64,000 nt of DNA from Lytechinus pictus. Lineage: Eukaryota. The stretch is from NCBI RefSeq assembly GCF_037042905.1, contig NC_087251.1:45510001-45574000 (forward strand). The letters run 5' to 3'. A program made the translations under genes and the position numbers. The notes under the pieces are model-generated. The model was given only the letters and a program-made list of their open reading frames with translations, had not been told where the DNA came from and made no database searches. Below are positions 2,829 through 54,466 of this stretch, piece after piece (positions within the stretch are counted from its first letter, which is position 1; each line of letters starts with the position of its first letter).

Positions 2829-3270
2829 TGCCCGAATTCACAAAGGTCATTTCTAATTTTAAAAGCATCGGTTGAACCCATGGTTTATGCAGATTTCCTG
2901 TATAAAGTATGCTTATTTACCGGGTATATTAAAAAATGTCCAGTGCTGATGCACGCTTTTGTCACAGTGCGCCAAACTGACACCTGTTGCCATGGTTAAG
3001 TACCAGTATATTATATAAGGTATAAGGTATTATATTCAAGAGTCCACTGTTTGAAGAGTGGACTCATTAATTCAAAACAGTGGACTCATTAATAAAATAG
3101 AGTGGATAACCACGGCAATAGGCGTCAACTTGGCGCACTGCAACAAGACCGTGCATCAGCATTGGAAATTTTTAATATACCTGGTAAATACTCGTAATTT
3201 ATACAGGAAATCTGCATAGACCATGGGTTTACCCGATGGTTTTAAAAACCACCTTTGTGAATTCAGGCCA
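2829..3270. mobile_element. Palindromic MITE (~170 bp imperfect inverted arms)
   Basis: GCCCGAATTCACAAAGGT...CCATGGTTTATGCAGATTTCCTGTATAAA mirrored by TTTATACAGGAAATCTGCATAGACCATGG...ACCTTTGTGAATTCAGGCC. Confidence 0.8.
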
Positions 3271-14314: not shown

Positions 14315-15997
14315 ATGGAGGAAGCGTTCTATCTTCCGCTACCCTCTGATGGGGAACTTGAGGGCTCCGTTGGAGAGGAGGACGGCCTGATCTCTTCTCT
14401 GGGCCACACTGACCTTGGGACAGGTGTTCAGGACCAAGGCGAAGGGGTAGAACCCGCCCCTTCACAGGTAATGGGGGCTGGGGAGCCGGTCAAGGTTCCA
14501 TCAGCCACTGGGGACATTGCGGGGGCCCAAGCGGCACCCATCACAGGGGGAACTCCACGAGCGCCTCCAGGGTTTGAGGAAATGGAAGGGACTAACCGGC
14601 CCATCCATGAGAGGCAAATGCGCTGTTTGGAGGCATTGGAGTGGCTCGTGCAGGGCCAACTCCTTCCATATAAGAATACATATGATTTATATAGCGTCTT
14701 TTCGATTTTGATTAAATGCTCAAGGCGCTTTGAAGGAAGTAAAACATTAAAGTAAAGAGAACTAAGAGAATTACAAAAAAGGGTAATTAAAAATGACGAA
14801 AAATGACTGTCTTCAAACCTAGTACCTGCTGGTAAACAAATGCAATTTTAGGTTGCCCTTAAAGGATGTTGCAGAGTTTGAGTTCTTCAGCTCTTGTGGT
14901 AGTGAATTCCACAGGGCTGGTCCGGCACGAGCAAAGACTTGATCGCCCCAGGATTTTTTAGATAGTGGGATATGCATGAGACTAGATTGGGTTGATCGCA
15001 GTGTGCGTGCAGGTTGATAGTGGTGTGTAAGAGACTTGTTGTAATCAGGTGCGGATCCATTGATGATATGATGAACCAAAAGTAGAATTTTGAAAACTAT
15101 GCGATCCTTTATCCGGGCGCAATGATTAGGATGGCCCCATCTGCGCTACCCTGGGATTTTTGGAAGGGGCATATGCGCATGCGGTGGAGATGGCGTATGC
15201 TGGTTGGGTCTGCTGTCTACACGAATACCTCGCGGAACGGCTGTCCCCAGGTCAAAATGGGGACCGGTTCCCTTTATTGGATGGAGGGGGTGGGAACGAT
15301 GGATTGGTGTTTCTTTACCCCGACACTCCCTGGTGGGAACCCGCCATGGAGCGGCAGCGTCACCTCTGGCCTACCTGCCTCACTTCGAGGGAGGGCATCG
15401 GCGCCATGGGTCCAGGGTGAGCGGGCGCGCCACCAACTGCTAGAGGGGGAGCATCGGCTACCCCTGCGGCACCGAAGGGCCCGGCTCCGCCCCCGGTTTG
15501 GAAACGAACCCAGGGGCTTAACCCGGAGGCTGGGCGTGTTTCTTTTGAGGAGGTCGCTGCAAAGCCCCCCATACCTCTGGCCGTGGACAGTCTCTTCCAC
15601 CTAGATTTCCTGGAGGGTCCTCTTGGAAAGAAGGGCTGGAGGTGTGCCGAGTTGACATCGGGCAGGGAGCCTCGGGTCCCAGTCTGTCTAACCGGGGGTG
15701 TCGCGAATTTCTGCAATCACCAGAGGTACAAGAACATCGTGTTCCCGGAGGGTCGTAACTGGAAGGTCTCGGTGGGGGGTACTCCCCTGCTTCACTTCCA
15801 GTTTCGAGGAAGCAGACTTAGATGCCCTGGGCCGACTGGCCTGTGACCCTAAGACAAGCGCGCTCGGGGAGATTGGTTTGGATCACTCTCTCCCGCCCTC
15901 GACCCGGTCGAAGCAGTTGCTGGTCTATACGACCATCCTGGAGCAGGTCGGGGCTACTGGTAAAGTCCTCGTACTGCACCTGCGGGGACAAGAGGGA
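14315..15997 (+). pseudogene. TatD-like nuclease ORF, 5' copy, with long N-terminal extension; split by a LINE fragment and ended by Gypsy insertion
   Basis: Acceptor-like TTTTCTGTAG|ATG at 14315; GC-rich coding-like DNA resumes at ~15113; VDSLFHLD (degenerate DxHxH), GGVANFC, ALGEIGLDH, VLHLRG. Confidence 0.65.
14672..15112 (-). mobile_element. 5'-truncated LINE (L2/CR1 group) 3' end
   Basis: RIVFKILL...APDY...RTLRS...WGDQVFARAGPALWNSLPQELK..FKGNLKLHLF followed by 3' UTR with AAAGCGCCTTGAGCA...CGCTATATAAAT tail motif. Confidence 0.8.
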
Positions 15998-17819
15998 TGT
16001 AATATACTGTCAACTCACTATTTCATATTCTGTAGGCTGTTTTCTAATGCCTATTCATAAGATTAGTCCATTCTGTATCCTTATATATTAAAGAGAAAGT
16101 AACTTCTACTGTCATGACTCATTACTGTGGAATGTATCTTAACCATGGGATTGACCACTGGCATTCTGAATAAACCACTTGAGCTTAAGTTTTCATACTA
16201 CCAAGACATGTGTACCTGTCTCTCTCCTTTGTATTGAGTAATATAAAGGGTTGCTGGAACTGTTTGACTATTGAAATATTATAGTTTGTCCAGTATATAA
16301 AATTGGCGACAAGGATTTAACGAATTCTCCACGATGGCAGTGTACGGAAATATTGGAAGTTTTGAGGAGTCAATTGAGTCATTTGATGATTATTCGGACC
16401 GCATGGATGCTTTCCTTAGTGCCAATGCAATACCAGCAGAGAGGCAGGCTAATCTTTTCTTGGCTAGTGTCGGTCCTGTGGCTTATAAACTCCTGAAAAA
16501 CCTTTGCAGCCCAAGTCAGCCCAATACTAAATCGTATGAGGAGCTTAAGCGGTGTCTTAAGGAACATTTTAAAGTTTTGGACGGCTCAGCAAGGGGAGAG
16601 GGAGACAGTAGCAGACTTCATCGTTCGGCTGAAAAATTTGGCTTGGACGTGTGACTTTGGAGCTTTCCTGTTGGAAGCTCTTCGAGACAGATTAGTTTCA
16701 GGACTCCACCAGAAGATGTCACGTACCCAATGGCAGCTTCTCGCCATAAGCTTAACTTTTGAGAGTGCTAGGTCCCGTTGATGATGAGATGGCTGGTGCT
16801 GCTAATAAGCAGCACATGGGACCAGCAGTGGCCAGCAGTGAAGTTCATCGTGTAGCATATCAGGGGCATTACCAGGGTAACCGACAGTTTCCAAGGAAAT
16901 CACCTGGCGCATCCCCTCCTTGGAAGAATTCGTCTTGTAAATGCTGTGGAGGAGACCATCCGGCGGATAGATGCCGATTTAAGGACGCCACATGCCACAT
17001 CTGCAAGAAGAAGGGACATATTCGTTCTGTGTGCCGATCGAGGAGACGGGAAGAGGGACGAAACCAGTATGTTGCCCAAGTGCCAGATGGAATAAACTCT
17101 GACTCAGAAACAATAGTAGACCATGATCATGATGATGATGTGAATTATGTTGAGAGTAGTTTTGGATTACACAATATTGAGGGTGAGTGCAATCATACAT
17201 CTTTGCCTTATTATGTACATGTTAATATAGGTAGTACTAGTTTGGAAATGGAGGTAGATACCGGGGCGGCACGATCAACGGTGTCGGAAGTCGTGTATCA
17301 GTCTGAATTACCGAGATACCCTCTTCGTAAACCCAATATAACTCTACGTAGTTATTCCAAACATGTCGTACCCCTTCTTGGCTGTATTACTATACCTGTG
17401 GTGTATAATGGGGGGAGGACGGTGATGCTAGAACTTCTAGTAGTAAAGGGCAGAAGACCTGCCCTGTTTGGGAGAGATTGGCTAAACAAGATAAAGCTGG
17501 ACTGGAAAAGCATTTTTGCCATGCAAAATAAAATTTCTGTAACAACAAAGGAACAAAAGAGGGTTGATCCCAGCATAACAAGGGACAAGCTTAATGCTTT
17601 CCTACTAAACATGCAAAGTTGTTCAAAAAGGATAAGACTGGAATAAAAGGGTTCACTGCATCCTTAAAACTGAAACCGGATGCAAAGCCTTGCTTTCAGA
17701 AGGCTAGACCAGTCCCTTATTCCCTGGTGGAAAACGTAAATAAAGAGTATGAGAGACTGGTAAAGGATGATATTTTCTAGCCTGTCACTCACAGCGAGTG
17801 GGCGTCACCAACTGTTCAT

Positions 17820-18790
17820 GTGTCTAAAGCACAGGGTGCCATTCGCGTGTGTGGTGATTACAAGAGAGTGAATGAGGTAATCGAGGATGATGGTTACATA
17901 TTGCCAAATGCACAAGACTTGTTCGCAAAACTTGCTCAAAACGGTACCACTCCAAAAGTGTACTCGGTCATTGACCTTACTGGCGCTTTCAATCAGCTTT
18001 TTCTGGATGAAGAATCTGCGAAGCTTCTTGTGTTGAACACTCACAAAGGTTTGCTCGCACCAAAGCGTTTGTGTTTTGGAGTCAAAACAGCGCCATTTTT
18101 GTTTCAAGCTACCATGGACAAAATAATATCAGGCATGCCGAATGTCTTCTGCTATGTTGATGATATACTTGTGGCGACAGAAAGCATTGACGAGCGTATG
18201 AATGTACTCACAGAGTTATTTGCCAGGTTAACTAAGCATAATGTGCGGCTAAATCAGGATAAGTGCAAATTCCTACAATCCAAAATCAGATATTTGGGGC
18301 ATATTCTCACTGCTGAGGGCATTGAACCGATTCAAGACAAAGTTGAAGCCATTAACAAAGCCCCCAAGCCTAAGAATGTATCTGAATTGAAGTCTTTCCT
18401 AGGAATGATTAATTACTATGGCAAGTTCATTCCAAATCTGAGCACCGAGCTCCAGCCCCTCTATGCATTACTACAGCACTCAACTGAATGGAAATGGTGC
18501 AAAAGATGTGAAGCCGCGTTCACATATGCGAAAAAGGCCCTTGCTAGCGATAGGGTTTTGGTTCATTATGATGCTTCAAAGCCAGTTGTTCTAAGTGTGG
18601 ATGCGAGTCCATATGGATTAGGGGCAGTTTTAAGCCATAAGCTTGCGGACGGTTCAGAAAAACCGATTGCCTATGCTTCTAGGACTTTGAATGCTGCAGA
18701 GAAAAATTATGCACAAATTGATAAAGAGGGATTAGCTATTATCTTTGGGGTGAAAAAGTTTCATCTGTACTTGTATGGTCGGGAGTTTCC
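17820..18790 (+). pseudogene. Gypsy B pol: reverse transcriptase and RNase H N-half
   Basis: IRVCGDYK, IDLTGAFNQL, RLCFGVKTAP..FQ, YVDDILV, LKSFLGMINYY; upstream in-frame TAG and frameshift. Confidence 0.9.
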
Positions 18791-19421
18791 ACATGTTCAT
18801 TCAAGCGTGAATGTTTAATTAAACGCCTTTGAATCATTGAAGCATGTTAATTGGTCATGAACATAACGAAAAAGTTGAGAAAAGATCATTTTCAGTTACC
18901 AAAATGAAACAGTACATGCCTATGATATTTGAAAATCATATTTTTTGTTTTCAATAAATGTTCATTGAACCGTGAAACGATGAAAATTGTTGAAGATACT
19001 CTTCCCAAATATAACTGTCATCATATTCTATCATTTTTATTGATAAAAATGTGTAAAACATCCAATTATAGCAAATTTGGACTTGTGTTTATTCAACCGT
19101 GAAATTTAGCCAAAAAAGTTGTATCGTCTTTTAGAAAGTACCTTTTACAAGTCTTCTGACTATTTTTCATGATGAGAATGTGGAATTAGTTCCAATAAAA
19201 TGGAATCAAAGTAATGATATTTGGCTTGTGACTTTTGAAAAGTGACATTTTTGCCTTCTGACGGTGCTCACTGAAGCATGGCGTAAAATACGTCCATAAC
19301 TTTTACTCAGAGGATAGCTTATAAAATTACCTACACGCTCATGTAAAAATATATTAAAAACTCGCATCGGTTCGGAAATTATTGATGTTTGTTTAAGGGG
19401 GGACTTACTTTTTTTGTTGTG
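18790..19421. mobile_element. One-ended non-coding DNA-transposon fragment replacing Gypsy B integrase/3' LTR
   Basis: Abrupt switch from RNase H coding to AT-rich DNA; ends GGGGGGACTTACTTTTTTTGTTGTG|TA at a TA inside the 3' LTR. Confidence 0.5.
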
Positions 19422-19466: not shown

Positions 19467-20238
19467 TTCCTGGAGGGTCCTCTTGGAAAGAAGGGCTGGA
19501 GGTGTGCTGAGTTGACATTGGGCAGGGAGCCTCGGGTCCCAGTCTGTCTAACCGGGGGTGTCGCGAATTTCTGCGATCACCAGAGGTACAAGAACATTGT
19601 GTTCCCGGAGGGTCGTAACTGGAAGGTCTCGTTGGGGGTACTCCCCTGCTTCACTTCCAGTTTCGAGGAAGCAGACTTAGACGCCCTGGGCCGACTGGCC
19701 TGTGACCCTAAGACAAGCGCTCTCGGGGAGATTGGTTTGGATCACTTTCTCCCGCCCTCGACCTGGTCAAAGCAGTTGCTGGTCTATACGACCATCCTGG
19801 AGCAGGTCGGGGCTACTGGTAAAGTCCTCGTACTGCACCTGCGGGGACAAGAGGGACAAACTTCTGATATCCCTTCTCGGATTGTCCGAGAAGCAACCAG
19901 GAAAAGGGTCAACAGATATCAGAGGAATCATATCCACTGTTGTACCCTTGGACCTCAAGAGGTCGAGGCTTGGGGAAAAGTTTTCCCCAACACCTACTTT
20001 AGCTTCAGCTGCATGGTGAAGCATTTCACTGGGGAGCAGTTGGACGCCTTGAGGAGGGTCCCTCTTGATAAGCTATTGCTGGAAACAGATTCTCCATATC
20101 TCCCTGTTGGGGGTGTCAAATTCATGACCCCTGCATATATCGGGGAGGTGGGAGAGCACGTCGCCTCAGCCCGGCGGATATTTTCTCACCCTCATGAAGC
20201 GAGCTAGGATTAACCATCTGGCGCTCTATGGGGTGTAG
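19467..20238 (+). pseudogene. TatD-like DNase, second (tandem-duplicated) copy running to the C-terminus
   Basis: ALGEIGLDH, VLHLRG, HIHCCT, YFSFS, VPLDKLLLETDSPYL, TPAYI; frameshift near 20180 then FLTLMKRARINHLALYGV*. Confidence 0.85.
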
Positions 20239-21323: not shown

Positions 21324-22688
21324 GGGATTTTCAGAAAATGCAAAGTGTTGTAAATCATAGGAATCACAGAGGATCTAGCAGAAGAATGTAAAAGAATACT
21401 AAAGAAGCCAAATGATATAATGTCTAATAAGAATCACAATCTCAACCTCCTGTTTAAGATCTTGCCTTCAGGAAGAAGGTTGGGTTCGATGAAGTGTCGG
21501 ACAAGTCGGTACTCAGACTCATTCATGGCATTTTCTATTTGGTTGCAAAACCCAATCGGAAACGTATGATCCGTGATATCGAATGTCAACAGTGAATATC
21601 ATTCAACTGGACAATTTATCAATTTGTTTTCTTATTCCACACCCCCTCTTATCTTTATATATTTTCATTATTTAAAATATTTTTGCTTTGGAATTGCATT
21701 ACATGTTTCTTCTCCGCCGGACCTTGCTTCCTTCCTCTTGCTATTGTGCAATACAGAAACATCTTTGAAATATTAATCTTAGAACATCTTTCTTTTTAAC
21801 TGGTTTACTTCTTATTTACAAATGCATTAGCAATATATTTTTGGGTTACAAATTTTCTTTCTGCCAGATTTCTTTCAAACAGTGCAATAAATAAGTATCA
21901 ATGGAATTTTCATTTCTGTCCAATTTCATTTAAACCCAATTGTCTCTACAATAATTTGATTCCTTTTTTTTTATCGCCAATAGGTTATAATATTCAATTC
22001 ACTAATTTCAATTACATTTCTCAAAAACCTTTAATTTATAAATTGCCCTTTTTCAACGTCATTTCATCATTTTTCTAGTTTTATATTAGTGCAATTAATT
22101 GTAAATATTAACTAAGCAGTGCCCTTCAAAGTGTATAATTTCAGCATTTTTGATGATATGTACTTGTTATATTATGGAATCTTATATGTGACCATGACGC
22201 ATTTCTTGTGCTATTATTGACAATAAAGAATAAATTGAATTGAATTGTCAGCGTAGCCTCATCTGGACCAATACCACGTGCTCCTTGACTGATTATTTAT
22301 CATCAGTAGGATAGTCACAGCCTACCTCCATTAGTCAGTATTTGGTCAAGCTGGAACGAAAATGTGCATTTTTGTTATCAGATGATAAAGAAGACTTTAG
22401 AGCATCTACCAATATCAAAAAGTCTCCTTCATATTCATACACAAAATTCTGACAGCTTTTCCAAGTAAATGTAACATGTTCTATACGCACTGTATAAGAA
22501 TCAAATTTTCATTTGACAAAGCGCAAAATGAGAAGCAGATGAAGTGGCGATTAGACCATTTGGGCATTAGACTAAATAACAAAGAGACTAAAGTGAAAGG
22601 ATAAAGAGCAAGTGTAGTGTAGACAAAACGGAAATTTGACCAAATCAAGACTAGACCAAATGGGCTAGCCAATGTGGTGTTAGACATC

Positions 22689-23655
22689 TTGTCACCCAAA
22701 TCCTGTTTCTGTAAGCATACTCTGCAACGTAACTACTGCATCACCTTCAATTTATGGCTGATGTAGCCAAGAAGAGTTAAACACCATCATGATGTCATGG
22801 TAGAGAGAGCAGGTCACACTGTCACCTAAATCCTGTCTTTGTAAGCATACGACGCAAGATAACTACTGCATCACCTTCAATTTATGGCTGATGTAGCCAA
22901 GAAGAGTTATACACCATCATGATGTCACGGTAGAGAGAGCAGGTCACACTGTCACCTAAATCCTGTCTTTGTAAGCATACGACGCAAGATAACTACTGCA
23001 TCACCTTCAATTTATGGCTGATGTAGCCAAGAAGAGTTATACACCATAATGATGTCACGGTAGAGAGAGCAGGTCACACTGTCACCTAAATCCTGTCTTT
23101 GTAAGCATACGACGCATCGTCTTCAATGTAAGGCTGATGTTGCCAGGTGGAAGCACACATCATCCTGATGTCATGGTTAAGAGAGCAGGTCACACTGTCA
23201 CCTAAATCCTGTCTACGTAAGCATACTCTAGTTTCAAACGTAACCACTGTATCAGCCAAGAAGAGTTATACAACACCATGCATGATGTCACGGGTAAGAG
23301 AGCAGGTCACACTATCACCTAAATCCTGTCTATGTAAGCATACTCTGCAACATAACTACTGCATCACCTTCAATTTACGGCTGACGTAGCCAAGAAGAGT
23401 TATACAACATCATGATGTCACGGGTAAGAGAGCTAGTCACACCATCACCCAAATCCTGTCTCTGTAAAGCATACACTCTAACGTTATTACTGAATCATCT
23501 CCAAACTATACTTGAAGGAACCAGGTGAAAGCATACAACAGCATGGTGTTATGGTCAAGAGAGCAAGTCACATCATCTTCAATGAATGGCTGATGTAGCC
23601 ACATGGAAGCATACATCATCATATGGTGTCTTGGTTAAGAGAGCAAGCCACACTG
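22689..23655 (-). repeat. Tandem array (~130 bp unit, ~7 full + 1 partial) derived from the CINP C-terminal codons and stop
   Basis: Unit starts at 22689, 22819, 22949, 23079, 23195, 23312, 23442, partial ~23571; each aligns to 23653-23766. Confidence 0.92.
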
Positions 23656-23852
23656 TCACCTGAATCCTGTCTCTATAAGCATACTCTCCAATGTGACGAT
23701 GGCATCATCTTCTATATATGGCTGATGTAGCCAGGAGGAGGCATACATCATCATGATGTCACGGTTGTCATGGTGAGCTACATCCTCGACGATCACCTTC
23801 TTGACCTCAAGTTCCTTCTGGTACATTTCTTGAAGATGCTGAGAGGCTTGAA
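23656..23852 (-). CDS. CINP: CDK2-interacting protein, exon 5 (terminal)
   Basis: ASQHLQEMYQKELEVKK...SWLHQPYIEDD...LESMLIETGFR*, matches the CINP C-terminus (WLHQPY, LESMLLETG); acceptor TTGCAG, phase 1. Confidence 0.9.
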
Positions 23853-24338
23853 CTGCAACGAGGAAGAGCAGAAGAAAGAGATGCATTAGATGAAGGATGA
23901 GAGAGATAGGCTAAGTCACATTTATTTCATTTCATTTCATTTTTCATTTTTCATTTTTCATTTCATTCCATCCATTTTCTCTGGGGTGAACTTAAAGCTT
24001 TACACAGACACAATATAATATTTTCAATCATGAGCCTGCTTCACATATTACATGATGGATCTGTTTTCAAAGAGTTCTTACAGTAAAGATTCTATACTTA
24101 AGTAAACCAAAGGAATTTAAAAAAACAAATAACAAATTCCAGAGGAAAATCAGTTAAGGTTGATTCTTAACCTACCATGAGTGACCTAATGTTTTCATAT
24201 GAGTTCAATACAGTAAAGGAATGAGACACGGAATGATGTCGTATCTAATTCCAACTTCCAATTATACAATTTAAACTTGTACAAAGCAATTTAATGGTGA
24301 TATGTTGGTTAGAGAGATCATTATTGACCAGTACTTAC

Positions 24339-24465
24339 CAAACTTGCCTACTGACCAGCTTGTAAACAATGGACTGGCATCCTGGTCAGATTTCTTTTTC
24401 TGCTCCAATTTCTCCACACCTTGGAAGTGCTTAGTGATAGATGCCATCTTGCTCATCAGTGTAGT
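24339..24465 (-). CDS. CINP: CDK2-interacting protein, exon 4
   Basis: TTTAG|TTLMSKMASITKHFQGVEKLE...PLFTSWSVGKF G|GTAAGT; 127 bp, phases 0/1. Confidence 0.88.
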
Positions 24466-25584: not shown

Positions 25585-25720
25585 CATAGATGTATGTATG
25601 GCAGTCAGCTGTTCACACAGTGTCTCGAGGCCTTCTGGCATTCCATCATTCAGCTCACTCAAGAACTCTACTTCACTCTTGGTCCTCGTCTGAACATCAA
25701 GCTTGCTTTCTCTATCACTC
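25585..25720 (-). CDS. CINP: CDK2-interacting protein, exon 3
   Basis: TTCAG|...EGLETLCEQLTAIHTSM|GTAAGT; 136 bp, phases 2/0. Confidence 0.88.
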
Positions 25721-26162: not shown

Positions 26163-26325
26163 TTATATTGAAGTTTAAGATTGATGATCTTGTTGATGAT
26201 GTCGAAGCCTGCATCATTCATTCCATTCCATTTCTCAATATGATTGTGCCAATCGGCGCAGTGGTCCTTGATGACCCTAGCACTCCCTTGAAGCTTCTGC
26301 TGCTGATGACCAGATGGACTAGCAC
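26163..26325 (-). CDS. CINP: CDK2-interacting protein, exon 2
   Basis: GSARVIKDHCADWHNHIEKWNGMNDAGFDIINKIINLK, the conserved CINP N-terminal motif; 163 bp, phases 1/2. Confidence 0.9.
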
Positions 26326-28504: not shown

Positions 28505-30325
28505 AGCCTCGAGGGCTCCGTGATGATATTCAAAAATATTTTTACATATACTTTTACATTACGGAGCCTTGACATGCTGCGCATACATGTAAACACGGAT
28601 GGATTTCCCTACGAAATCCATCTTTAGAACTAGAAATCACTTATATTAGTGGGATTTTATTTTTCTATTAAACCTTCATACGCCTAATGCGTATGAAGGT
28701 TTGAAAAATCTCTTAGTATTAATATGAATAAGTGGAACGCCTCTGGCAGTCTCGCCTGCATTACGCGATTCGATATAGCAGCAGTGCTGAATTTGAAAAC
28801 AGCTACAGTGTATTAAATAATTAATCACAAAAGAAAACGCTCATATGATAATAAAATATTATGCCCATTGACCCAACATGACCTTTGACCATGATCATGT
28901 GACCCAAGACAAGTGCAAAACAATCATTCATACTTGATTACCCTTATGTCTATGTTTCATGAACTACATGTGTAGATCCATAAACTTTCTAATTCAACAA
29001 ATACCCACAACACGGCCAAAGTTCATTGACCCTAAATGACCTTTGATTTTGGTTATGTGACCAGAAACAAGCACAAGATATTCAGGGATACATGTACATG
29101 GTTACTGTACTCTTATGTCCCAAGTTTCATGAATTAGATCTATAAACTTTAAAGTTATGATGACAATTCCACCAATACCCCCAACATAATCAAAGTTTGT
29201 TGACCCTACATGACCTTTGACCTGGGTCATGTGACCTGAAACTCACACAGGATGTTTAAGGATACTTAGTTGCTCTTATGTCTAAGTTTCATGAACTAGA
29301 TCCATAAAATGTCAAAGTTATGACAATTTCACAAATACCCCCAACATGGTCAAAGTTTGTTGACCCTAAGTGACCTTTGACCTCGGTCATGTGACCTGAA
29401 ACTCAGGCAGGATCTTCAGTGATACACTATCACCCTTATGATCAGTTTCATGAACTAGGTCCTTATACTTTAGAAGTTATGACGACATTTCAAAAACTTA
29501 ACCTTGGTTAAGATTTCGATATTGATTCCCCCAACATGGTCTAGGTTCATTGACCCTAAATGACCTTTGACCTTAGTCATGTGACCTGAAACTCAGGCAG
29601 GATATTCAATAATACTTGATTATCGTTATGTCCAAGTTTCATGAACTAGGTCTATACACTTTCTAAGTTATGATGACATTTCCAAACTTAACCTTGGTTA
29701 AGATTTCAATGTTGACGACGCCGCCGTCGCTGCCGTCGGAAACGCAGCGCCTATAGTCTCGCTCTGCTACATGTATGCAGGTAAGACAAAAATAAGAGGT
29801 TTTTTACCAGACCGATCTCGTGTATCCATTTGTTAACACCACAAATACAATAGGCTTGACCCTTGAACCGCTTCGTTATGACGTAGCTTCGATGAGCTAC
29901 GTTATAAAATGCCATTTTGAAGAACAATTCAAATTTTATTATTTGTTAAATGATAATTTTTATCTACATGTAGGCCTATAAATTGTTCTTCAAAACGGCA
30001 TTTTGTAACATAGCTCATTGAAGCTACATCATAACAAAGCAGTTCAAGGGTCAAGCCTATTGTATTTGTGGTGTTTATGAATGGATACAGGAGATTGGTC
30101 TGGTAAGAAACCTCTAATCTTTCTTATACTAAGAGATTTTCAAACCTTCATACGCATTAGGCGTATGAAGGTTTACAGATAAATCAAATCCCACAAATCT
30201 AAGTTATTTCTAGTTCTAAAGATGGATTTCCTAGGGAAATCCATCCGTGTTTACATGTCTTGTATGTCAAGGCTCCATGATGTAAAAGTATTATTAAAAA
30301 ATATCATCACAGAGTCCTCAAGGCT
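28505..30325. mobile_element. Large fold-back (palindromic) element, left arm interrupted by an insertion at 28727-29790
   Basis: 28505-28726 is the reverse complement of ~30120-30325; 29791-29935 is the reverse complement of ~29978-30120. Confidence 0.85.
28727..29790. mobile_element. Helentron/HINE-like non-autonomous element with ~160-190 bp internal tandem repeats
   Basis: Subterminal IR GTCTCGCCTGCAT / ATGCAGGTAAGAC, A-rich ends without clear TSD, five units containing TGACCTTTGACC, GGTCATGTGACC, AAGTTTCATGAA. Confidence 0.65.
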
Positions 30326-32294: not shown

Positions 32295-32395
32295 CCACAG
32301 CCAAGTACCACCAGCATGACCAGGGGCCTCGGAATTGGCAAGAGCACAGTTCTTGTGTCTTGTTGTGACACTCCTGTTTTGCATTTAGTGCTTAC

Positions 32396-32465
32396 CTGTA
32401 TTGTTGTCTGTGTTACTTTTGTGAGCACGACGAGAAGAACCTTTCCTCTTTTTTTCATCTGTCAT
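32396..32465 (-). CDS. CINP: CDK2-interacting protein, probable first coding exon
   Basis: ATG MTDEKKRKGSSRRAHKSNTDNNT G|GTAAGC, phase 1 fits exon 2; sits below a CpG-rich promoter-like stretch. Confidence 0.7.
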
Positions 32466-45635: not shown

Positions 45636-45653
45636 ATTGCAGCATTGGCACTA

Positions 45654-47422
45654 CAGTGCGTCCCAAAAAAAACTATACACTTTTGAAATGGCTGCCAAAT
45701 AAAAAATGTATCATTTTGGGGGAAAAGACTTATAGATAAGGAAAGCCTATAACGTCAACTTTCAAATGACACCAAAAAGTTTGAAAACTATTCATGCTTG
45801 AGCGAGCACTGCCCACTGAAACAAAGGGTATGAAAATTAGGGTGGGCTGGAATTAGCCTTCCAATTTCTTTCAGGTTTTTTTGTTTGGTACTTGCAAAGT
45901 TGATGGTAATTTGGTGAATTAAAGATCAGTTGTGATCAGTTTGTTGTTTGTGACAATTTAATGCGTTATTAAATTGAAATTTAATGCACGAGTGATCATG
46001 AATTGGGTGCAGCATTTTGTCTTATCGTGTGGATCTCAACAATGTGTTCACGACAGTCAGGAGAAGAGGGGGTAATATGACTTAGGTAGGTGAAGTACGT
46101 TGATGGGATAAAGGTCAACAGAACATTTAGCAACCCCTTTCTCTATCTCAACCCCCCCCCCCCCCGCTTCTCTCCTCCTGAGAGACTACGCTCAGCTAGG
46201 CTGGGCAGGAATTAGCCTTACAGTTTTTTTAGTGGTTAGTCCTTTGGAACTTGTTAAGCTAAATTAATGAGTGAGATAAGTTTGGGTTTCTTAGGCAAAT
46301 TTTATGAGTTACTAAATTGAAATTTAATGCATGAGTGAACAGGAATTGTGATTTTATTGTAGCATATTCATCTTGTGAACCTCAGAAGTGTGTTCATGAG
46401 AGTCAGAGTAATGTGATGGTACCCGTTACAAGCAAGAGGGCGAGATATGCTTAGACTTGGTTAAAAGGGCATTCCTCTTCTTTTTTTCATTTTACAAATT
46501 AAAAGTCATATGTACCCTCCCCTCTCCACCTCCATTTCCCAGCCCCCCCCCCCTCTCTCTATCTCACTTCCTGCATTGTAGCCTATTCAAAACTTAACTG
46601 CCAAGTGACTGGTGGCTGATGGTCAGGGTTTTTTTCAATGATTACCAAGAAATTTAATGATTAATGAAATAATTAATTGAAAAAAAGGAATGTTTGATTG
46701 ATCACCTTGCACATTGAATAAGTTGATTTACTGATAAATTGTTGATTAAATGATTGATAGGAAAAATTTGATGTCCCAATTCAGAATTAATCATAATCAA
46801 CATTCTGCTCTGGACTCCACGCGTACATGACAATAGCCATCAATCTCTCAACAGGAGGGGAGGGCGGGAAAGAGGGAGGGGGCGGGGGCTGAATGTTCTG
46901 TTGACCCTTATTCCATCAACCTACTTCTCTCACTTAAGTCCTATCTCACCCCCTATTCTCCCGACTCCCATGAACACATTGCTGAGATCCACATGATAAA
47001 TTTGAAATGCTGCCCAAAAGAGATCCAAATGATAAAGTTGAAATGCTGCCCAAAAAGTGTAATTTGTGTTCACTCATGCATTAAAGTTCAATTTAATAAT
47101 TTATAAAATTTGCTTAAGCAACCAAAACTGGTCATGGTTGATCATTAATTTATCACATCGCCCTTAACTTTGCAAGTTCGAAAGGATTTGCCTCTCAAAA
47201 ACTTACATAAATTGGAAGGCTAATTCCAGCCCACCCTAATTTTCATACCCTTTGTTTCAGTGGGCAGTGCTCGCTCAAGCATTAATAGTTTTCCAACCTT
47301 TTGGTGTCATTTGAAAGTTGACTTTATTGGCTTTCCATATATGTAAGTCTTTTCCCCCAAAATGCTACATTTTGTATTTGGCAGCCATTTCAAAAGTGTA
47401 TAGTTTTTTTTGGGACGCACTG
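45654..47422. mobile_element. Tc1/mariner-type non-autonomous fold-back element with long TIRs
   Basis: TA|CAGTGCGTCCCAAAAAAAACTATACACTTTTG ... CAAAAGTGTATAGTTTTTTTTGGGACGCACTG|TA; >200 bp near-identical arms, weaker homology further in. Confidence 0.9.
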
Positions 47423-47751
47423 TATAATGAGTTGCATGATTCTGATATCCCATAAAAGCCATCCAATAAAATTATTATCATCTTTATAACGATCATTATT
47501 CATTAGACTGTGCAATACGGCATGATATTCCACAGGAAAATAATGCACTATATCGAAAATAAAGCAAAGGCGATAGATCACATCCAATGAAACAAGAATT
47601 ATAGCAGTGAAAGTGTGACATTGCGGGTTCTTTACAAGACTTAGTACCTTTGGGGTGTGAGTGAACACAGCTGAAATTGCAAGTTCACAAAAAGTCGAGA
47701 AAATAAATTAGCTGAACTGAGCTAAACAAACCAAACTGTAAAACACTTGTA

Positions 47752-48559
47752 CAGTGCGTCCCAGAAAAAACGAAACCGAGATTTAGCGATGATTTATCAT
47801 AACTTAATCATAAATAAAATAGACAAATGACCTACCAATGTAAAGCTTAGAATCTCCTCTTTCATCTGGTATTACTTAGATTATTCCTCATTCACGCATA
47901 ATTGAGCAAAAACAATTCGAAGAAAGGATGCCAAATACTCATTTGGCGGGGGGTATCTGAATTTCAAAAAGAAAATCACATGACTAAAAAGTTAAATATC
48001 TTCTCTTTTCTTTGATACCTAAATCACAGAAAATGGTCAAGTAGTAAAAAAGTTATGATCCCTCGAAACAATGCTTGTATTTCCATAATTTCATTAAATA
48101 AACGTGTTTTCACCGGTTTCCCACTGAAGCTATCGCACGGTAACAAAGGACTTAATGCATGGCTGATCGTCAACAAAACGGAGTGTGAACGCTAGCCTGT
48201 AAAACCTCTTCATTTTATGAAATTATTGAAATTCAAGCCTTGTTTCAAATAACCAGAACTTTGTTATTTCTTGACCATTTTCTGTAATTGAGGTATCAAA
48301 TTAAAGAGCAGATATTGAACTTTATAAAAATGTGGTTTTCTTTTTAAAACCCAGATACGGCCCGCCAAGTGACTTTTTGGTATCCCCTTTTCAAATTGTG
48401 TTTGCTCACTCATGCGTGAATGAGAAATAATCTAAGTAATTTCAGATAAAAGAGGAGATTCTAAGCTTTACAATGGTAGGTCATTTGTCTATTGTATTTG
48501 CGATTAAGTTATGATAAATCATCGATAAATCTCGGTTTCGTTTTTTGTGGGACGCACTG
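47752..48559. mobile_element. Second Tc1/mariner-type fold-back element sharing the CAGTGCGTCCCA terminus
   Basis: TA|CAGTGCGTCCCAGAAAAAACGAAACCGAGATTT ... AAATCTCGGTTTCGTTTTTTGTGGGACGCACTG|TA. Confidence 0.9.
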
Positions 48560-48626
48560 TATATCAATTGGCTACAAAACAGCAATTTTTTTCTATCACT
48601 TGGTTCACTAATATAGACAAACTAAC

Positions 48627-53505: not shown

Positions 53506-53707
53506 CTTGTACATGGAGACATTTGTGTTTTTCTGCTCCAGATTTCTGAGAGGAACACCCCCAGCAAGGAGGGCCTCGTCAAACGAAAAGCTGCACCCGA
53601 AGTAGAAGAAGCAAAAATCGTTTAATTGCTCCCCAAATTTCAGAAGGTCTGGAACTGTTTCGGCAAACTCTCCATTGACAAATACATTTAAGGCTCCCAA
53701 ATCAGTC
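53506..53707 (-). CDS. DGLUCY: D-glutamate cyclase, alternative exon 3b
   Basis: TCATAG|G TDLGALNVFVNGEF...FYFGCSFSFDEALLAGGVPLRNLEQKNTNVSMYK|GTAGC; 202 bp, phases 2/0. Confidence 0.88.
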
Positions 53708-54270: not shown

Positions 54271-54466
54271 CTTAAAAGAAGAAACATTTCCCTTTTCCAA
54301 ATTTCGAAGAGGCACTCCTCCTGACAAGAGGGCCTTGTCAAAGGAAAAACTGCATCCCAGGTAGAAGAAACAGAAATCATTCAACTGATCCCCAAATTTA
54401 AGAAGATCAGGAACCTCTTCTTTTAATTTCCCATCATTGAATATGCAATAAGTAGACAGGTCAGTT
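54271..54466 (-). CDS. DGLUCY: D-glutamate cyclase, alternative exon 3a
   Basis: TCATAG|A TDLSTYCIFNDGKL...FYLGCSFSFDKALLSGGVPLRNLEKGNVSSFK|GTATT; 196 bp, phases 2/0. Confidence 0.85.

Follow-up and report, generated by a model that had tools for sequence, protein, structure and literature searches.

Introduction

The 40-bp repeat of the human SLC6A3 gene is a 3′-UTR VNTR. Another group of human repeats begins at the edge of an exon: according to Borensztajn et al. (2006, PMC1557585), the first monomer spans an exon boundary in the 37-bp VNTR of F7 IVS7, in CBS intron 13 and in the LMNB2 (100-bp) and PDGF (81-bp) repeats. PMC3389668 relays two models of how minisatellites arise (Haber and Louis 1998; Taylor and Breden 2000), for which it names as marks a short repeat at the junctions and an incomplete terminal unit. 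Finally, Ivanov and Pervouchine (2022, PMC9013439) describe tandem exon duplications in UTRs and mutually exclusive terminal exons.

Here we describe a tandem array at the 3′ end of the CINP gene in a 64,000-nt stretch of Lytechinus pictus DNA (the window, to which all coordinates refer). The array is the stop-codon counterpart of exon-boundary minisatellites. Like the F7-type repeats, it has an exonic first unit followed by head-to-tail copies; as in them, the signal used is probably that of the first unit, and copy number may vary. It differs from them in repeating a stop codon and not a splice donor, in carrying its copies in the 3′ UTR and not in an intron, and in having units of 130 bp that are far more diverged. 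Its first unit spans the stop inside the last exon rather than an exon-intron border, and no intron follows in the RNA covered. With the SLC6A3 repeat it shares being a tandem repeat, probably a variable one, in a 3′ UTR; it differs in being derived from coding sequence. The marks of the birth models are present as AACC at junctions and an incomplete last unit. Like cases in PMC9013439, the array is an exon-derived tandem repeat in an untranslated region; unlike them, its copies are partial, devoid of an acceptor, all broken and without sign of alternative use. Thus, no copy has the acceptor of its own and the open frame that would make it a member of an alternative terminal exon cluster. A literature search, with subscription journals outside its coverage, found no description of the CINP array or of stop-spanning urchin repeats.

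The end of CINP is repeated eight times downstream of the gene

CINP lies on the minus strand of the window. Its identity was taken from the PDB; Pfam has no family for any of four exons searched. The last exon matches human CINP chains 9gwj, 8rhn, 8cih and 9lgo with E ~1e-15, and exon 2 matches human CINP with E ~1e-10. All four exons tested are found letter for letter within P0001, a 230-residue Lytechinus pictus protein with the NCBI name CINP-like, to which the gene is 100% identical. The first coding exon (residues 1-24; tblastn, 100% to P0001) is at 32394-32465 and is followed by exon 2 at 26163-26325 (PDB match and P0001), exon 3 at 25585-25720 (P0001), exon 4 at 24339-24465 (P0001) and the coding part of the last exon at 23656-23852 (PDB match and P0001), with the splice acceptor at 23852 and the TGA stop at 23658-23656. 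According to PMC12019325, CINP is an adaptor of the SPATA5 complex and acts in 60S maturation. Residue 163 (window 24339-24350) is Gly in the window and P0001 and Asp in RNA run X12 (see below), L. variegatus and S. purpuratus. The 64-codon last exon shows five to six silent differences between X12 and the window, a sign of high allelic diversity. Intron 1 contains a degenerate 160/190-bp tandem repeat (28866-29715) with no kinship to the coding array.

The last 35 codons of CINP, the stop and ~19 nt of 3′ UTR are followed downstream by eight tandem copies (22690-23636). A BLAST search of the window with the gene end returned eight pieces, all within this interval, with E values from 9e-31 to 8e-12. 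The array is not a chance likeness, since the best match elsewhere in the window has E 1.1. A first-pass annotation had reported about eight re-copies of the CINP end; the number holds in both BLAST and unit alignment, while the repeated part, given there as ~36 codons, is 35 codons plus the stop. Counting the gene's own copy (U0), the array consists of nine head-to-tail units of ~130 bp (TRF period 130-131), all read on the minus strand. Minisatellite units usually measure 10-100 bp; those of the CINP array are larger. When copies were sought for nine exons or open stretches of the window, only the last exon of CINP had them; the other match was a self-palindrome.

U0 (23637-23766) comprises codons 196-230, the stop and 19 nt of UTR. 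Next to it is the shortest unit, U1 (23557-23636, 80 nt), which belongs to an older unit type and has a 52-nt internal deletion and a 2-nt insertion, followed by U2 (23426-23556, 131 nt), which has a 1-nt insertion and is the most diverged from the gene (35/130). A distal family begins with U3 (23295-23425, 131 nt) and includes U4 (23179-23294), with a 22-nt deletion and two small insertions, and the full-length units U6 (22933-23062) and U7 (22803-22932), each of 130 nt, which differ from one another at one position. Between U4 and U6 lies U5 (23063-23178), a mosaic whose 5′ half is of the older type and whose 3′ half equals that of U6/U7, with 14 nt deleted. The terminal unit, U8 (22690-22802, 113 nt), ends 2 nt past its stop and lacks the 17-nt linker. 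Internally deleted units of 116-117 bp had been noted before; U4 and U5 are both of 116 nt, but the shortest unit is U1. The translation quoted at that time is that of U7. Units also described then as nearly identical correspond to a recently expanded tract at 22799-23116, offset from the unit borders, with a single mismatch at offset 130 across 22799-22986; in the unit placed at 23079 the identity ends after ~38 bases, where the sequence passes into the older unit type (U5).

Proximal copies are transcribed as CINP 3′ UTR

Four of the 14 listed sequencing runs were aligned to positions 23426-23915, an interval made up of the last exon, 65 intronic nt and 211 bases of the array (947 in all). 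Among the listed holders of the array none is recorded as RNA, a point given no weight as evidence, and the small shares in runs X6-X8, X10 and X11 were likewise set aside. In X12, a stranded, rRNA-depleted run with the same species label as the best-matching runs, of which about 6 in 100 was used, 42 reads aligned, all in one direction. In most libraries a single read direction corresponds to the sense strand of the gene. Depth fell from 10-12 in the exon to 8-9.6 over the 3′ half of U0, then to 6.5-7.4 across U1 and 6-7.4 across U2, while no read covered the 65 intronic nt; hence coverage of the first two copies was ~60% of that of the exon, and continuous from the spliced last exon. At the acceptor, nine loose read ends matched CINP exon 4. 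No pile-up of molecule ends was seen in X12 across the aligned interval. Being same-strand, spliced and continuous, these reads place U1 and U2 within the CINP 3′ UTR, and these two copies are transcribed as part of it. The earlier description of the array as a minisatellite that arose from the end of a coding exon is thus supported, and so, for the stretch from the last exon through U1-U2, is its place within the 3′ UTR.

Transcription of the distal units on the same strand is strongly indicated. Fifteen of the 42 X12 reads, less than 90% alike and aligned at 23702-23765, carry letters of the distal family including its TAA; 12 loose ends match the junction that follows U5, U6 and U7, and a single read runs from U2 into a next unit. 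The array adds 947 nt to the putative 3′ UTR in this allele. No AATAAA is present within 2.7 kb of the CINP stop, and the closest ATTAAA is at 22035. A further run, X1, gave two contigs that do not tell RNA from DNA, and its depths (48 versus 25) were not read as copy number.

All copies are broken and the protein is unaffected

Each of the eight copies is interrupted by a stop or a frameshift. Codon 211 is a stop in U2 (TAG) and in U3, U6, U7 and U8 (TAA); U3 has a second stop at codon 226 (TAG), which U4 also has; and the deletions in U1, U4 and U5 were given above. Unit length is not divisible by three, read-through of the real CINP stop meets a TAA after six codons, and the acceptor of the last exon lies outside the repeated unit, so the array cannot lengthen the CINP protein. 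Both Lytechinus database proteins, which are predictions, end at the first stop.

Within the distal family, pN/pS was 0.92, 1.18 and 1.10 for the three pairs formed by U3, U7 and U8 (8-10 differences each); the distal copies evolve free of codon constraint. Between gene and copies the ratio was 0.31-0.54, where ~0.5 is expected if the gene alone is constrained. A crude count over all copies, in which the consensus leans toward the distal family, gave an excess of silent changes (17 silent versus 36 other, p 0.04). Such an excess would follow if the gene had seeded copies on several occasions, but past constraint may also have produced it.

The array predates substitutions common to two Lytechinus proteins

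That the array is old had been missed in the first-pass annotation. Residues 217 and 225 of CINP are Val and Thr in S. purpuratus, and Ile and Ile in both L. pictus and L. variegatus. V217 is found in all six copies covering that codon and T225 in all seven. Since the copies keep the S. purpuratus-like states, the array predates the two substitutions common to both Lytechinus proteins. Codon 205 encodes Thr in U2, U5 and S. purpuratus, but it was set aside as evidence of age, outgroups being variable at this position.

A second coded species label, organism B, is represented by X9 (its kind guessed to be RNA), from which we obtained a 430-nt contig with a depth of 4.7. The contig leads from the end of U1 through U2 and a single unit of the distal type, TAA included, into the same unique flank that follows U8 in the window. 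From the end of U1 through U2 it aligns to the window without gaps, with seven differences in 146 nt. U1, U2 and a terminal unit similar to U8 therefore persist in two species labels and, since the X9 units are broken, the copies were already dead in the common ancestor of both. Rough ratios, calculated from few sites, would make U2 ~11 times and U8 ~5 times older than the split of the two labels. Organism B shows three copies versus eight in the window, a count that comes from this one contig, where assembly collapse is possible.

Birth and turnover of the units

We propose that the array began with a tandem duplication of 130 bp across the stop codon, joined at a short microhomology, probably the AACC seen at junctions. 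The protein is unchanged because the duplicated stretch contains the stop; the copies, transcribed as extra 3′ UTR as described above, decay in the distal family regardless of their old reading frame. In the coding sequence the unit opens with AACC, which recurs at junctions U0/U1 and U4/U5, and the U1/U2 junction reads GACC in the window and AACC in X12 and X9. The breakpoint proposed here is putative: a metagenome scan for an array-free outgroup, run with the last-exon alignment, gave 214 pattern matches and no confirmed case. The flank past U8 (beyond 22690) starts with CAAGA, like U1, which would fit a small linker deletion from the terminal unit. If the linker was so deleted from U8, the U0/U1 junction would be the original one.

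The array has turned over by unequal exchange, as mosaic and homogenised units are both found in it. U5 and U7 differ at 16 of 62 sites in the 5′ half and at none of 46 in the 3′ half (p 6e-5). In the simplest reading, U5 would once have adjoined U8, and the 130-bp stretch from mid-U5 to mid-U8 would have been duplicated twice to give U6 and U7. Unequal crossing-over of this kind, to judge from the anatomy, would add, remove and shuffle units, and the same loss or gain may account for the shorter allele in the related species label. The 5′ half of U5 differs from its closest relatives at 10 of 62 sites versus 7 of 146 between the window's label and organism B (p 0.011), so the organism B allele more probably lost units than that of the window gained all of them. 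The distal reads of X12 differ from every unit of the window, 13 of 15 sharing a letter at 23741 absent from all window units, and six loose ends combine a U3-like 3′ half with a letter of U6/U7. The share of the array's sampled words was 0.89 in one study (four of the 14 listed runs, possibly the source of the window) and 0.18 in another with the same label. The three copies in the organism B contig and the other distal unit types in X12 would fit the length polymorphism that the first-pass annotation considered possible; within the species, such variation is indicated only indirectly.

A tree of 5′ halves, from which U4 was left out, sets U1, U2 and U5 apart from the gene and the distal family (UFBoot 90; 62 columns, four of them informative). 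In the 3′-half tree, from which gaps excluded U1, U4 and U5, U6/U7 is the only resolved grouping. The 5′-half tree weakly suggests that the array may have been founded twice from the gene end, first by the U1/U2/U5 type and later by the U3-U8 type.

Other repeated features of the window

An exon of a D-glutamate cyclase gene is present in two tandem copies on the minus strand (54271-54466 and 53506-53707), both with PF07286. The copies are 79% identical at the DNA level over their matching part, have AG/GT borders, measure 196 and 202 nt, are in the same phase and open, and are candidate mutually exclusive exons. On the plus strand, a 390-bp pair that is 97% identical (15607-15997 and 19467-19856) flanks a reverse transcriptase/RNase H frame at 17781-18815. 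The second member of the pair lies in a TatD DNase-like frame (PF01026), and this TatD-like piece may be associated with a retroelement of the LTR type. Long, imperfect inverted repeats that resemble MITEs or foldback elements are found at 2830-3268, 29788-30122, 45652-47424 and 47750-48561.

Neutral or functional

The array is silent because the first stop ends translation, and we consider it most likely that it is a tolerated, neutral minisatellite derived from an exon end and carried in the CINP 3′ UTR.

One observation speaks against strict neutrality. Between a single sample, X12, and the window, the tail of U0, U1 and U2 show 5-7 differences over 230 sites, while 5-6 of ~36-47 silent sites of the exon differ (Fisher p 0.001-0.036). 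3′ UTRs commonly vary less than silent sites, so this hint of constraint on the proximal copies is not specific to the array. It could also be expected if the accidental array had become a 3′ UTR regulatory element, with copy number tuning the stability, translation or localisation of CINP mRNA, a reading, akin to the multiplied RNA regulatory sites suggested in the first-pass annotation, that we find unlikely. Sense transcription of the array and the retention of U1, U2 and the terminal unit in two species labels are in its favor, as is an excess of AUUUA (5 versus 1.1 expected) in a count of five motif patterns, which also gave 36 DRACH versus 21. These excesses are not independent, since the motifs are copies of the same sites, the AUUUA being one site copied. 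Motifs of the PUF, CPE and poly(A) types were absent among the same five patterns. The array RNA folds no better than its shuffles (z +1.44; 19 of 20 shuffles fold as well), and Rfam gave no credible match in it, the one match (E 0.62) being outside. Furthermore, indels are many and organism B seems to manage with three copies. We are also doubtful of a broader reading, in which a ribosome-biogenesis gene would have co-opted the array as a 3′ UTR element that is tunable by copy number. The element would have been retained across the species split and seeded anew from the live coding end on several occasions, so that gene end and UTR copies exchanged sequence, and it would be the stop-codon form of a genome-wide bias of this urchin toward exon-end duplication.

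The first-pass annotation had raised the possibility that the copies serve as a reservoir from which gene conversion or unequal crossover swaps the C-terminus of CINP. This now appears very improbable. The 5′ halves of the distal family do group with the gene against U1, U2 and U5 in the tree described above, and gene end and array have probably exchanged sequence more than once in the past. In addition, U6-U8 keep 19 open codons after codon 211, and three letters of U0 in X12 (23707, 23662 and 23648) equal states of the copies; the latter are equally explained as ancestral states. Against a donor role stands the broken state of all copies: a crossover before codon 211 would import a stop or a frameshift and truncate a segment conserved in all 13 proteins compared. 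Both Lytechinus proteins and X12 still have Ile at 217 and 225, and the five listed exon differences of X12 are all silent. Nor do the copies look like donor cassettes, as the distal pN/pS is ~1 and no copy-type residue occurs in P0001, P0004 or X12, few alleles as these are.

Alternative terminal exons and a read-through extension are, as roles for the copies, more improbable still. Precedents exist in Drosophila, where, according to PMC9013439, pip and PGRP-LC use tandem terminal exons alternatively; at CINP, four units have weak acceptor-like sites and the stop is TGA-C. However, the unit does not include the real acceptor, the weak sites resembling one sit just before the TAA at codon 211, the 42 reads of X12 contain no exon-skipping joint over 23426-23915 (an interval that reaches as far as U2), and read-through halts after the six codons mentioned above. 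As for an assembly artefact, the near-identity of U6 and U7 (1/130 differences) means that the exact unit number could be mis-assembled, but the chance that the array itself is one, already judged unlikely in the first-pass annotation, is practically nil given that units differ by up to 41/130, that junctions and units are found in runs of four studies, one possibly the source of the window, and that four of the 14 listed runs, all from that study, hold the 0.89 of sampled words reported above.

Significance

If neutral, as we favor, the array would be a clean, datable example of 3′ UTR growth from coding sequence. Its copies would preserve older states of CINP (V217, T225), much like a fossil record, and the array would be a likely length marker in this laboratory urchin. 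At the CINP 3′ end, the array is also a source of possible errors in read mapping and variant calling. The finding would carry greater weight if CINP, the SPATA5-complex adaptor, were tuned by copy number.
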